Source: Eledone cirrhosa
Taxonomy: Eukaryota
Reading direction: 5' to 3'
DNA length: 64,000 nt
Assembly (NCBI GenBank): GCA_964016885.1
Contig: OZ024754.1
Span: forward strand, 37,324,001 to 37,388,000
This document shows, piece by piece, positions 10,653 to 45,270 of the stretch (position 1 is its first letter; every line of letters starts with the position of its first letter). The notes under the pieces were generated by a model that was not told where the DNA came from, did not search any database, and saw nothing but the letters and a program-made list of their open reading frames with translations. Position numbers and translations under genes: made by a program.

Positions 10653-11058
10653 CGAACTCCCACTGTCATCGCCTCCATCTCTCTCGCCCTCCCCATCTCT
10701 CTGTATGGTGAACAAATGGGGTCCCATGTGCTGGCCTCCCCACAGCCCCTACGGACAGAATGGAGAAGGCATTTCTCCGGAGGACGGTAAGGGAGATGCG
10801 CTGGAAGAGCCATTCCAGGTTGCGAGGCTCACACCTGCGGCTGGCCAGCTCAGCACCTATGGTGGTGAGGGGTGAGTAGTGAGGTAGCCCTAGGGCCAAG
10901 GATACCAGAAGTCGCCACTGCTATGGGTAGCCAGCTCAGCACCTATGGTGGTGAATAGTGAGGTAGCCTTAGGGCCAAGGACACCAGGAGTCTCCACTGC
11001 CAAGGGCACGACTGCGAACCTGTCGGAGAGCAACCGGTTTTTTCTGGTCGATTGTTAC
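10653..11058 (-). mobile_element. CRE-like (restriction-like endonuclease) non-LTR retrotransposon 3' fragment
   Basis: Minus-strand translation LSDRFAVVPLAVETPGVLGPKATSLFTTIGAELA...EPRNLEWLFQRISLTVLRRNAFSIL matches the C-terminal 'P.A.ET.G..G / LFQRIS....RGNA' signature of CRE-clade elements; ~80-bp internal duplication (10844-10929 / 10930-11008); downstream segment duplicated at 10430-10507. Confidence 0.75.
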
Positions 11059-25987: not shown

Positions 25988-26340
25988 ATATGTATATATA
26001 TATATGTATAGATATATATGTATATATATATATGTATAGATATATATGTATATATATATATGTATATATATGTATATATATATATATATGTATATATATG
26101 TATATATATATATATGTATATATATGTATATATATATATATGTGTATATATATGTATATATATATATATGTATATATATATGTATATATATGCAGAGGTT
26201 ATATTTAATTTGTTGGGATACAACAAGCTAAAAATATTTTTATAACTGATATAAAGCACTCAACAAATTATTGGAGTAAATATACAATATATTAACAAAT
26301 GTATATATATATGTATATATATATGTATATATATATATAT

Positions 26341-26532
26341 TATAGAAAGGGCTTCTACAGGACTAGAACTGTTTCATTCGGGAGAAATCATCAGGGCTTC
26401 CTGATGATTTCTCCCGAATGAAACAGATCTAGTCCTGTAGAAGCCATTTCTATATTAAATATTTATACTCTGCTATGTATTGAGTACCTTACTTACTGTG
26501 GTTACCCGCAATTATTGAACCCGGAATAAACT
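26341..26532 (+). mobile_element. palindromic PLE-like element (family D)
   Basis: Inverted arms 26341-26394 / 26400-26454 plus tail GTATTGAGTACCTTACTTACTGTGGTTACC; in (TA)n. Confidence 0.75.
26395..26445 (+). ncRNA. type-I hammerhead ribozyme (family D)
   Basis: GGCTTC CTGATGA t-TTC tccc GAA-t GAAA CAG atctagtc CTG TA GAAGCC; GUA cleavage triplet. Confidence 0.8.
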
Positions 26533-27157
26533 TATATATATATATATGGAAAATGTAATGTGTTGATGGCAAGCCCTGCTATTTCAACTTGTTTACTCAT
26601 GTTGAAACGAGAAGCAAAAGGTATTTATTTACCTTAGATTTGTTTCTTAGCCTCAAACTTAAGAGTATGTCTTGTTTAATGAGGTTTTCATTCAACAGGT
26701 GGTCCATCTGAATTTTCAGGTTCATTCATTATTTGCTCACAGTAACACTTTATCTGAAAACATGTTGGCACAAGGTTTGAGATATGTGGAACAAGATATA
26801 TAAAAAGATATATATTTAAAAAAAAGAAAAGAAAATTAGTGGGATTATAATTTCTGACCTATAACTGGTTTGTGGTCATCAGATAATTTCATTCTTGCAT
26901 TCCTACATTACTGAGAAACATTTGAAATTGTATAGATTACGGGTGCTACTGTATGCTGTCAATGTTTCCTTTAATCCACTTTAATAAATTGAATTGTCAC
27001 CCAATGCTGGCAACTCTAGTATAAAACCAGATCTACTGTAATTATGACTCACTTATTTACACAGTAGATTGTATGGACAATTTATAGAGGGTTGGTTTTC
27101 TTAAAGTTTAATTTCTAACTTGTGTATGTACATATGTATGTACATATGTATGTACAT

Positions 27158-32512: not shown

Positions 32513-32903
32513 TCATCATCATCATCATCATTTTATGTCCGCTTTTCCCTGCTTGCAAGGGTGGGACGGGAACTGATTCTGGCTTGATTTCTACAGCTGG
32601 ATGCCCTTCCTAACACCAACCTCATTTACAGTGAGTGCTGGGGGCTTTTTTTCCATGGCGCCGACACATCCACTTTACAGTGTGGGTTGGGTGCTTTTTT
32701 TGCCGTGGCACCTCCACGACCACTTTGCAGTGGAATGATATGGACCCCAGTCCCTATCATCTCATTTCTACAGCTGAGTAAACTGGAGCAACGTGAAATA
32801 AAGTGCCTTGCTCAAGGAAACAACACATCACCCGGTCTGAGAATTGAACTCACAACCTTTCGATTGCAAGGCCAATGCTCTAACCACTAAGCCATGTGCC
32901 TCC
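32513..32903 (-). mobile_element. full-length tRNA-SINE with RTE tail
   Basis: Reverse complement of the 41360-41690 type. Confidence 0.85.
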
Positions 32904-32914
32904 ATATATATATA

Positions 32915-34921: not shown

Positions 34922-34924
<3 letters not shown>

Positions 34925-35250
34925 TCATCATTTCATTTTACGTCCGCTTTCCCTGCTTGCAAGGGTGGGACGGGAACTGATTCTGGCTGGATTTCTACAG
35001 CTGGATGCCCTTCCTAACACCAACCTCATTTACAGTGTGGGCTGGGTGCTTTTTTGCCATGGCACCTCCACGACCACTTTGCAGTGGAATGATAGGGACC
35101 CCAGTCCCTATCATCTCATTTCTACAGCTGAGTAAACTGGAGCAATGTGAAATAAAGTGTCTTACTCAAGGAAACAACACATCACCCGGTCCGAGAATTG
35201 AACTCACAACCTTTCGATTGCAAGGCCAATGCTCTAACCACTAAGCCATG
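34922..35250 (-). mobile_element. tRNA-SINE with RTE tail
   Basis: Same family as 41360-41690. Confidence 0.85.
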
Positions 35251-35261
35251 TATATATATCA

Positions 35262-35452
35262 AGTTTATCCCGGGTTCAATCGGGGGTAACCACAGTAAGT
35301 AAAGTACTCAATACAAAGCAGAGTATAAATATTTAATATAGAAAGGCTTCTACAGGACTAGAACTGTTTCATTCGGGAGAAATCATCAGGCTTCCTGTTG
35401 ATTTCTCCCGAATGAAACACTTCTAGTCTTGTAGAAGCCTTTCTATATTAAA
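35262..35452. mobile_element. palindromic family D element with two hammerhead copies (one with core mutation CTGTTGA)
   Basis: Arms about 35332-35389 / 35394-35452, plus tail on the minus strand. Confidence 0.75.
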
Positions 35453-36829: not shown

Positions 36830-36869
<40 letters not shown>

Positions 36870-36954
36870 TGTGTGTATATATGTATTTGTAAATATATAT
36901 ATATTTATATATACGATATTAAACAAATGGAAACTATATTTATAAAACCATATT

Positions 36955-37020
36955 TATTTCATTATACATATTTCAGGGATACCATATTAAGAATATGGCA
37001 TGTCTTCTTCAGATAAAATA
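36955..37020 (-). ncRNA. type-I hammerhead ribozyme (family E)
   Basis: Inverted copy of 37165-37230. Confidence 0.72.
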
Positions 37021-37164
37021 CAATATATAAGCAGTTTTATAAATAAATTTGACGTACCATAAGATATTGATCAACTTCCATTTAAAAAAGTTGGGTTTTT
37101 TAAATGGAAGTTGATCAATATCTTATGGTACGTCAAATTTATTTATAAAACTGCTTATATATTG

Positions 37165-37230
37165 TATTTTATCTGAAGAAGGCATGCCATATTCTTAATA
37201 TGGTATCCCTGAAATATGTATAATGAAATA
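37165..37230 (+). ncRNA. type-I hammerhead ribozyme (family E)
   Basis: TATTTTAT CTGAAGA AGGc ATGCCATATT ctt AATATGGTAT cCCT GAAA tatgta TA ATGAAATA. Confidence 0.75.
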
Positions 37231-37468
37231 AATATGGTTTTATAAATATAGTTTCCATTTGTTTAATATCGTATATCTACTCCAAAACTTGTTGAGTGCT
37301 TTATATCAGTTATAAAATATTTACTCGTTGTAACCCAACAATTTTAAATAAAACTTTTGCATATATATTTATATATATATATATATACGTTATTCCGGGT
37401 TGAATCGGAGGTAACCACAGTAAGTAAGGTACTCAATACATAGCAGAGTATAACAGTTTTAATATAGT

Positions 37469-37517
37469 GATTCCTGATGATTTCTAATGAATGAAACAGT
37501 TCTAGTCCTGTAGAATC
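37469..37517 (+). ncRNA. type-I hammerhead ribozyme (family D variant)
   Basis: GATTC CTGATGA t-TTC taat GAA-t GAAA CAG ttctagtc CTG TA GAATC; stem I covaries with the GGCTTC/GAAGCC copy. Confidence 0.8.
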
Positions 37518-37554
37518 TCATCTATATTAAAACTATATATATATATATATATAT

Positions 37555-37674
37555 GTTTACGGCCATATCACACTGAAAACACTGGTTCTCGTCCGATCAC
37601 CGAAGTTAAGCAACGTCGAGCCTAGTTAGTACTTGGATGGGTGACCGCTTGGGAGCCCTAGGTGCCGTAAGCGT
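37555..37674 (+). rRNA. 5S_rRNA: 5S rRNA sequence, full length, dispersed; head of a retroposed 5S-RTE chimera
   Basis: GTTTACGGCCATATCACACTGAAAACACTGGTTCTCGTCCGATCACCGAAGTTAAGCAACGTCGAGCCTAGTTAGTACTTGGATGGGTGACCGCTTGGGAGCCCTAGGTGCCGTAAGCGT; box A and box C present; helix I pairs. Confidence 0.95.
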
Positions 37675-37725
37675 TTAATTAGTCCCACCCTTGCAAGCAG
37701 GGAAAAGCGGACGTAAAATGATGAT
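37555..37725 (+). mobile_element. 5S-derived SINE (SINE3-like) or 5S-RTE chimeric retrocopy
   Basis: 5S is followed directly by GTCCCACCCTTGCAAGCAGGGAAAAGCGGACGTAAAATGATGAT, the tail of the RTE LINE at 44850-44905 and of the tRNA-SINE at 41647-41690. Confidence 0.8.
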
Positions 37726-37755
37726 ATATATGATGTGTGTGTATATATGTATTTG

Positions 37756-37790
<35 letters not shown>

Positions 37791-37794
<4 letters not shown>

Positions 37795-37991
37795 CAGAGT
37801 ATAAAAGTTTTAATATAGATGAGATTCTACAGGACTAGAACTGTTTCATTCTTTAGAAATCATCAGGAATCTCTAAAGAATGAAACAGTTCTAGTCCTGT
37901 AGAATCTCATCTATATTAAAACTTTTATACTCTGCAATGTATTGAGTACCTTACTTACTGTGGTTACCTCCGATTCAACCCGGAATAACGT
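37791..37991. mobile_element. palindromic family D element; intact hammerhead on the minus strand at 37821-37873
   Basis: Arms 37791-37857 / 37872-37938; minus strand GAGATTC CTGATGA tttctaaagaat GAAA CAG ttctagtc CTG TA GAATCTC. Confidence 0.8.
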
Positions 37992-38017
37992 ACTATATAT
38001 ATATATATATATATATA

Positions 38018-38591: not shown

Positions 38592-38623
<32 letters not shown>

Positions 38624-38627
<4 letters not shown>

Positions 38628-38913
38628 AAAGTTCTATTTAAATTTGTTGGGATACAACAAGTAAATATTTTTATAACTGATATAAAGCACTCGACAAATT
38701 TTTGGAGTAGATATACGATATTAATAAATGGAAACTATATTTATAAAACCATATTTATTTCATTATACATATTTTACAAACCTATTTGTAAAACTGTTAT
38801 ATATTGTATTTTGTCTGATGAAGGCATACCATAATTTAATGTGGTATCCCTGAAATATGTATAATGAAATAAATATGGTTTTATAAATATAGTTTCCATT
38901 TATTAATATCGTA

Positions 38914-38916
<3 letters not shown>
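38624..38916. mobile_element. family E element with inverted arms; hammerhead at 38807-38871 (+)
   Basis: TATTTTGT CTGATGA AGGcATACCATAatttaaTGTGGTATcCCT GAAA tatgta TA ATGAAATA; arms 38711-38774 / 38853-38916. Confidence 0.75.
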
Positions 38917-38944
<28 letters not shown>

Positions 38945-41357: not shown

Positions 41358-41359
41358 AT

Positions 41360-41690
41360 GGAGGCACATGGCTTAGTGGTTAGAGCATTGGCCTTGCAAT
41401 CGAAAGGTTGTGAGTTCAATTCTCAGACCGGGTGATGTGTTGTTTCCTTGAGCAAGACACTTTATTTCACATTGCTCCAGTTTACTCAGCTGTAGAAATG
41501 AGATGATAGGGACTGGGGTCCATATCATTCCACTGCAAAGTGGTTGTGGAGGTGCCACGGCAAAAAAAGCACCCAGCACTCACTGTAAATGAGGTTGGTG
41601 TTAGGAAGGGCATCCAGCTGTAGAAATCAAGTCAGAGTCAGTTCCCGTCCCACCCTTGCAAGCAGGGAAAAGCGGACGTAAAATGAAATG
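41360..41690 (+). mobile_element. full-length tRNA-SINE with RTE tail
   Basis: GGAGGCACATGGCTTAGTGGTTAGAGC (A box), GAGTTCAATTC (B box), central domain, GGAAGGGCATCCAGCTGTAG module, tail CCCACCCTTGCAAGCAGGGAAAAGCGGACGTAAAATGA. Confidence 0.9.
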
Positions 41691-41833
41691 AATGATGAAT
41701 GAACGTAAAGAACCGTAACTCATGGTGTCTGATGCTAGAGCCAATTGTGTACATTTCTGTGTACATGACTATTGTACATAAAAAGCTATGTAATGAAAGT
41801 TTTACAAGAGAAGCTGGTAAGAACTATCTAGTT

Positions 41834-44849: not shown

Positions 44850-45270
44850 ATCATCATCATCATTTTATGTCCGCTTTTCCCTGCTTGTAAAAGTGGGACG
44901 GGTCCTATTCAGCACGGCACTTTGTCATTTCCTCTGTGAGCTTCAGCAATCTGAGGTTTGCTCTCACCACCTCCGCCCATGTTTTTCATGGTCTTCCTCC
45001 ACTGCGTCTTCCTTCCACTGGGTTTATACTTGACACTTCTTCACCCAGCGGTCATCCTCCATGCGCATCACATGTCCATACCAATGCAGTCTTCTCTCCC
45101 GCATACTACAGCCTATCCCTCTTATACACAGTTTCTCTCTCAACTCATCTATGCTTGGTTATTCACGCACATTGACATTGTATAGCCAATGGAGCATGCT
45201 TGCTTCATTTCTCTCCAGCCGTCACATATCCTCCACAGTTCCTGCCCATATCTCACTACCATGCAACATG
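44850..45270 (-). mobile_element. RTE-clade LINE 3' end (decayed), source-type of the 5S/tRNA SINE tail
   Basis: MLHGSEIWA...RLERNEASML...RERRLHWYGHVMRM...GRP*KTWAEVV; 3' end CCCGTCCCACTTTTACAAGCAGGGAAAAGCGGACATAAAA(TGA)n. Confidence 0.9.

Follow-up and report, generated by a model that had tools for sequence, protein, structure and literature searches.

Introduction

Where do short interspersed elements (SINEs) acquire their heads? By the standard proposal, new SINE heads, among them the 5S sequences added to tRNA-SINEs, are acquired through template switching onto small RNAs, and the gain of a head by a SINE is usually inferred from finished families. Zebrafish SINE3 reportedly joins a 5S head to a LINE-derived 3′ end.

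Two kinds of described element come closest to the one reported here. The first consists of amplified families. CoeSINE5 and HaSE3 carry a 5S head and an RTE-derived end (PMC5786205), and the DeuSINE founders carry a 5S-tRNA head (PMC4758252, PMC4494074); as these sources describe them, the SINE3 and DeuSINE families are amplified, have a common origin, and usually contain a body. The second kind consists of individual chimeras. In the platypus and lizard genomes, the U6-L2, U6-Mon-1, U6-RTEX, and U6-AnolisSINE2 elements carry a Pol III RNA sequence on the 5′ side of a short, sense-oriented 3′ end that comes from a LINE or SINE; stringent LINEs and several LINE families per genome are involved, and the same source holds that LINEs needing a structured 3′ end move cellular RNAs only as chimeras (PMC4476161). 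Mammalian U6/L1 and 5S/L1 chimeras are described as unique, non-self-propagating events with target site duplications (TSDs) that flank the entire unit, and the human 5S/L1 heads as often being antisense and cut short at nt 46 or 90 (PMC11838501). In hagfish, a family is described as having been born from such a chimera (PMC7245038). For cephalopods, the O. vulgaris repeat annotation names one recent "5S" SINE family with 7 insertions, and the string "chimer" is absent from its main text (PMC13282606); the repeat library of that study may hold such elements. Our literature searches, whose scope did not extend to subscription journals or Repbase Reports, found no report, for cephalopods or other invertebrates, of chimeras that join a full-length 5S in sense to a SINE.

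Here we analyze a 171-nt element located in a 64,000-nucleotide stretch of Eledone cirrhosa DNA (hereafter the window; 34.6% GC, AT-rich animal DNA, C14:37324001–37388000 in a 3.0-Gb assembly). The element consists of a 5S rRNA copy followed by the 3′-terminal 44 bases of an abundant retroposon. Its layout is like that of CoeSINE5 and HaSE3; in contrast to the SINE3 and DeuSINE families, it is body-less and single-copy and mirrors current rDNA alleles. We propose, with a probability of roughly 0.85, that it is a single chimeric retrocopy formed when a reverse transcriptase (RT) jumped from the 3′ end of a family-A SINE or LINE to a 5S precursor.

Results

The 5S head matches Rfam RF00001 along model positions 1–120 with a score of 105.4 bits, and it is therefore complete, as the original prediction had claimed. 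Relative to type 1 of the tandem array genes it is changed at positions 16, 18, 29, and 101. The changes at positions 18 and 29 are CpG transitions, and none of the four falls inside the internal promoter region, which we take to span approximately nt 50–97. The copy starts with the mature 5′ G (nt 1) inside (TA)n, and the upstream flank of the rDNA is absent. At the opposite end, an 8-nt linker, TTTAATTA (37674–37681), separates the 5S from the tail. Thus, of the earlier claim that the 5S runs directly into GTCCCACC, the presence of the tail stands, but the direct contact does not. The first 7 nt of the linker match the trailer found in the true tandem 5S genes, whose ends read GCG-TTTA(A)-T6 or longer or GCG-TTTATC-Tn, and genome matches to a whole-element query reach query position 126, i.e., into the trailer. 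Because the trailer matches that of the array genes, the terminator of those genes is the later T-run, and the window copy stops two T into that run. The missing rDNA flank together with an end within the transcribed trailer indicates that the head was copied from a precursor RNA, and the lack of a T4 terminator, correctly noted before (TTTT is absent inside the element and first occurs at 37808), is then expected. The last base of the linker, an A, is likely to be a non-templated base or the 3′ adenylate of a 5S RNA. In contigs assembled from four RNA runs the 5S and the tail are covered separately and none spans the junction, which carries no weight either way. With three to four substitutions and no daughters found, the window copy is probably inert and the locus probably a dead pseudogene.

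True 5S genes are present in tandem arrays on C4 (92.40–93.24 Mb), with units of 1379 bp and ~870 bp, and in a cluster on C14 (L067, 42.77 Mb), where 11 5S copies in alternating orientation carry C63A/A106G. At least three 5S rDNA types exist, represented by the 1379-bp unit, by a shorter unit that has A23C/T95C, and by the 11-copy C14 cluster. Many chimeras have A81 together with a TTTAATTTT trailer, but no gene of this type was located in the sampled portions of the C14 cluster and the C4 arrays. The spacer of the 1379-bp unit contains a degenerate 5S 3′-like segment just downstream of the gene.

The tail (37682–37721) is identical at 40 of 40 positions to the end of a full-length family-A SINE in the window (41647–41686), and at 40/41 and 39/40 positions to two further SINE ends (32567–32527 and 34971–34933); 37 of 41 positions are identical to the end of the LINE (44899–44859). 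The window's LINE and tRNA-SINEs thus do share the tail, as had been predicted. The 5S/tail junction falls on the first base of a predicted 31-nt hairpin, the fold of which (−9.5 kcal/mol) has a z score of only −1.1 and is no better than shuffles. The heads of the family-A SINEs show A-box- and B-box-like motifs (by eye only), ARAGORN made 0 tRNA calls over the window, and we take the repeats of the window to resemble octopod SINEs.

Table 1. Coordinates of the chimeric element, its flanks, and related repeats in the window.
Feature	Position	Strand	Basis
Full-length 5S rRNA copy, 119 nt	37555..37673	+	Rfam and alignment to array genes
TTTAATT, 3′ trailer of 5S primary transcript	37674..37680	+	Array genes end GCG-TTTAA-T6+
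Extra A at junction, in neither parent	37681..37681	+	Before the tail, SINE has TTCCC and LINE has GACCC; array trailer continues with T
Predicted 3′ recognition hairpin, common to SINE family A and its LINE	37682..37712	+	Alignment and fold
GTAAAA plus short (TGA)n microsatellite tail, GTAAAATGATGAT, of family A	37713..37725	+	Alignment
(TA)n left flank, as is usual at targets of partners A, B, D, E	37534..37554	.	Flank survey
Right flank, possible right copy of long TSD	37724..37779	+	55/56 identical to 36858-36913
Possible left copy of long TSD	36858..36913	+	Candidate; match to right flank
Foldback elements	36914-37359, 37387-37533, 37787-37992, 35252-35452, 26338-26541, 38608-38920	.	TA-flanked, MITE-like
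Full-length tRNA-type SINE, family A, possible tail donor type	41358..41700	+	Tail alignment
Further family-A SINE copies	32513-32905, 34922-35251	-, -	Tail alignment
Decayed 3′ fragment of partner LINE, same tail end	44851..45270	-	Tail alignment

Sister copies of the partner encode RVT_1 and PHD domains (RVT_1 E value 1.3e-12 in L182), which confirms its identification as a LINE family. Its non-LTR RT, the zinc finger C-terminal to it, and the short repeats of its tail make up an RTE-type layout. This fits the EN-RT-Znf layout given for octopus RTE-2_OV (PMC9115989), although layout does not prove clade, and neither the names of homologs nor PDB matches pointed to a clade. The PHD finger lies just after the RT domain (L182:745–1401, L185:829–1770), and close relatives of the LINE occur in cnidarian and metagenome records.

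How general is the arrangement? Dispersed 5S copies were sampled with a 3′-anchored pattern (chimera-biased), a 5′-anchored pattern (unbiased on the 3′ side), and a whole-element search. The census was made by exact patterns and is a lower bound; tandem array copies, the 11 C14-cluster genes, and one extra C28 fragment were excluded from the counts. One locus, L075, was omitted from the partner alignment and entered the totals of 35 and 54 copies given below as a non-chimeric copy, and three partner references (L094, L095, L098) were drawn from chimeric loci themselves. Sense fusion to the 3′ part of a SINE or LINE was found in 42 of the 54 dispersed 5S copies examined, with at least five partners. 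In the unbiased set, selected by the 5′ end only, 24 of 35 copies have a sense partner within 40 nt and 0 of 35 an antisense one. The window background for neighboring partners is 13/624 sense and 11/624 antisense (~2%), for an expectation of ~0.7. Among the 42 junctions, 22 are at a SINE 5′ end (10 in SINE A or A-like, 9 in SINE C, 3 in SINE E), 14 are on a 40–64-nt tail (8 on the last 64 nt of repeat B, 3 on the A hairpin, 3 on the related D hairpin), and 6 are internal. Since each of the 11 longer 5S chimeras with family A is either SINE-like or derived from a SINE, a SINE RNA would be a little likelier than a LINE RNA as donor of the window tail, the 40 nt of which are common to both.

The linkers and heads of the series are heterogeneous. 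T4 is absent from the linker in 18 of the 42 chimeras, including the window copy. In five copies (L080, L082, L089, L090, L175) an A-rich run of 8–19 nt replaces the T-run and is followed by the SINE 5′ end; these A-runs point to an RNA-level or non-templated step, possibly adenylated 5S RNA or long non-templated additions. Across partners, the heads mix alleles and trailers from different rDNA types: C63A/A106G of the C14 cluster, A16C of C4 type 1, A23C/T95C of C4 type 2, and a G119A type. In the alignment of dispersed copies, 85 of 190 variants, at 22 of the 119 sites, represent CpG decay. The SINE bodies of the chimeras fall at scattered places between plain copies (9 rows needed 9 changes, and 8 rows needed 8); the SINE trees are star-like or poorly resolved, with 0 starred branches for family A, and such trees leave formal room for a single origin.

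The whole-element genome search yielded three copies in which 5S is joined to the short tail: the window element, L002, and L003, with copies on C14, C7, and C8. All three break at the identical tail base. Exact copies of the family-A tail with intact upstream sequence number 27,876. Solo tails beginning at the hairpin base number 704 (exact), those beginning five bases further on number 439, and 29 of 30 solo tails inspected have no SINE sequence upstream. The solo truncations are thus spread, so that a sharp hot spot confined to one base at the foot of the hairpin was borne out only in part and accounts incompletely for the breakpoint common to the three chimeras, which common descent would produce as well.

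No clean adjacent TSD is visible at the window locus, both flanks of which are TA-rich. A 56-bp duplication (Table 1) may be a long TSD split by two later insertions: its 28-nt core has only two occurrences in the 757 kb searched, and between its left copy and the 5S lie two TA-flanked foldback repeats (36914–37359 and 37387–37533), both present elsewhere. Because solo family-A tails rarely show a TSD (recognizable in 1 of 29, a 33-bp duplication at L128), the single-event status of the window locus rests on its class. Of 12 family-C chimeras inspected by eye, 9 have a TSD that surrounds the 5S+SINE unit as a whole, examples being L071 (17 bp) and L089 (15 bp), and an automated TSD test was positive for 9 of 40 chimeras, 3 of these 9 being low-complexity, versus 25 of 1560 mismatched pairs. 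Target type follows the 3′ partner: (TA)n lies upstream of 17 of the 30 chimeras whose partner is not C and of none of the 12 with partner C. The foldback repeats of the window comprise two TA-flanked, MITE-like families, one with 184-nt arms that are 99% complementary.

Several further observations concern the dispersed copies and their partners. L076 and L077 are partner-less 5S copies in which a ATTTACTGCTA trailer leads straight into (TA)n, possibly through reduction of the tail to a microsatellite or through direct priming. L073 and L075 are located inside local inverted duplications. Partner B corresponds to the 3′ terminus of a long repeat that is young (97–99% identity among copies; 3,246 exact matches). 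In a sample of 30 copies (L196–L225), half are tail-only. All 11 5S/U6 junctions with partner B lie within a few bases of one point. We considered and rejected partner B as a tiny stand-alone element, as 15 of the 30 sampled copies carry upstream sequence at 97–99%.

U6 RNA has been captured as well. Two of 16 dispersed U6 copies are gene-like and 7 are joined to partner B or C; of the remaining non-gene copies, 5 directly abut other repeats and 2 precede MITE-like DNA. The U6 fusion loci are L161–L172 and L145. L162 and L169 share one repeat-end type and L165 and L168 another, which also occurs in the window at ~10729–10869. A tandem U6 array (L133–L160; C19:31.78–31.84 Mb) has ~1.8-kb units, and two or more of the units sampled (L141, L143) contain a family-C SINE.

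Discussion

What events could have produced the window element? We propose that the LINE protein would bind the 3′ hairpin of a family-A RNA, either SINE or LINE, and that priming in a (TA)n target would proceed via the (TGA)n tail. The RT would stop or run off at the base of the hairpin, add or meet one extra base, and continue along an unprocessed 5S transcript from its U-rich 3′ end to its 5′ end. The copy would then integrate and decay without detectable daughters. Jumps by the R2 RT are described as requiring non-templated addition (PMC8857657). According to the criterion of Kojima, independent template switches are indicated when parent copies far outnumber chimeras (PMC4494074); the 27,876 exact tails versus few chimeras, with independent junctions, agree with this criterion. 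Likewise, the rule that stringent LINEs move cellular RNAs only as chimeras agrees with the scarcity of partner-less 5S retrocopies.

The chimeras of this genome resemble those of platypus and lizard in having a Pol III RNA 5′ of a LINE or SINE 3′ end and in drawing on several LINE families. Unlike the published U6 chimeras (PMC4476161), the heads here are 5S (and U6 too), often with the full precursor trailer or an A-run, and many junctions are at SINE 5′ ends or at the hairpin base. The present class is like the mammalian U6/L1 and 5S/L1 chimeras in being made up of apparently unique events that do not self-propagate, with unit-flanking TSDs in family C; however, the partner is not L1, none of the 35 unbiased copies has an antisense partner, and most reach the 3′ end of 5S, in contrast to the human 5S/L1 copies (PMC11838501). 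The fusions of 5S to a full tRNA-SINE have the layout of the 5S-tRNA DeuSINE founders as those sources present them (PMC4758252, PMC4494074).

A more far-reaching version of this proposal, which we consider unlikely, is that new SINE3 elements are still arising in this genome, several LINE machines repeatedly passing on their cDNA, at the hairpin base and at SINE 5′ ends, to 5S RNA that is nascent or adenylated. The 18 of 42 fusions that lack T4 would then be Pol III-competent minimal 5S-SINEs, and at least one of them would be transcribed through its tail and could found a family.

The anatomy of the element would be the same if the joining had taken place between RNAs, that is, if pre-5S RNA had been ligated to a clipped SINE or LINE RNA and the product reverse transcribed as one template, a route listed for U6/L1 (PMC11838501). 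A discrete, clipped 40-nt RNA would moreover account for the breakpoint common to the three short-tail copies. We nevertheless regard this as improbable, for two indirect reasons. RtcB is not known to use 5′ triphosphate ends, and 22 of the 42 junctions are at SINE 5′ ends, which are expected to be triphosphate-bearing Pol III starts. The varied 3′ ends of the heads (U-runs, A-runs) also do not point to one ligatable end.

Of the two readings offered by the original prediction, the template-switch chimera is the one that survives; it is highly improbable that the element belongs to, or is the master of, a small LINE-mobilized SINE3 family that has a 5S head and lacks a body. In favor of such a family, the three short-tail copies share their tail breakpoint, the internal promoter region is unchanged and the first T4 lies beyond the element so that read-through might occur, 5S-headed SINEs with RTE tails are known (CoeSINE5 and HaSE3; PMC5786205), and L042, L063, and L073 have one 5S/SINE-A junction in common. 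The element is also of SINE size (171 nt, below 1 kb), interspersed and non-tandem, and its head is 96.6% identical to 5S over 119 nt, where at least 60% over at least 60 nt is asked of a SINE3 head. However, SINEs are defined in SINEBase by a genomic copy number of 100 or more and by a common origin visible in diagnostic changes (PMC3531059), and we count at least 3 copies of 5S plus the 40-nt tail, at least 14 with a family-A or A-like part, and at least 42 chimeras with all partners. Many copies with one identical junction, named beforehand as the mark of a SINE3 family, did not turn up in the searches; the junctions vary. The linkers of the three short-tail copies are TTTAATTA, TTTAATTTTT, and TTTAAGTTTG, one of which has T5, and pattern searches of the genome found the exact window junction a single time; L194 (C13) also matched the junction pattern, but with an 11-nt 5S-like end only, and was dropped as likely chance. 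The three copies differ in their tail variants (4 A vs 5 A), L003 has the other allele at 5S position 81, and the alignment revealed no derived 5S change common to them. Such variants as are shared are rDNA alleles or CpG decay and do not cluster, at low resolution, and L042, L063, and L073 fail to group in the tree. We therefore reject SINE3 membership, and the window element belongs with the U6-L1/U6-L2-type chimeras.

Finally, it is barely conceivable that two events were involved, a solo tail having inserted by chance or local preference 3′ of an existing 5S retrocopy (the 5S orphon with an independent tail that had been named as the refuting case), because, common as solo tails starting at the hairpin base without SINE sequence upstream are, and although a clean TSD is absent at the window locus, 24 of 35 neighbors are in sense where ~0.7 are expected and none is antisense, no second trailer copy follows the tail, and family-C TSDs span whole units.

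For annotation, loci such as the one in the window should be counted neither as 5S genes nor as a SINE3 family. In this genome, dozens of independent 5S and U6 captures with several partners can be counted together with their junctions, trailers, and terminators. They constitute a fossil record, in series, of the step by which SINEs with 5S heads are proposed to arise, and the series allows one to ask what makes a chimera into a family, for example, loss of the T-run or the upstream promoter context.
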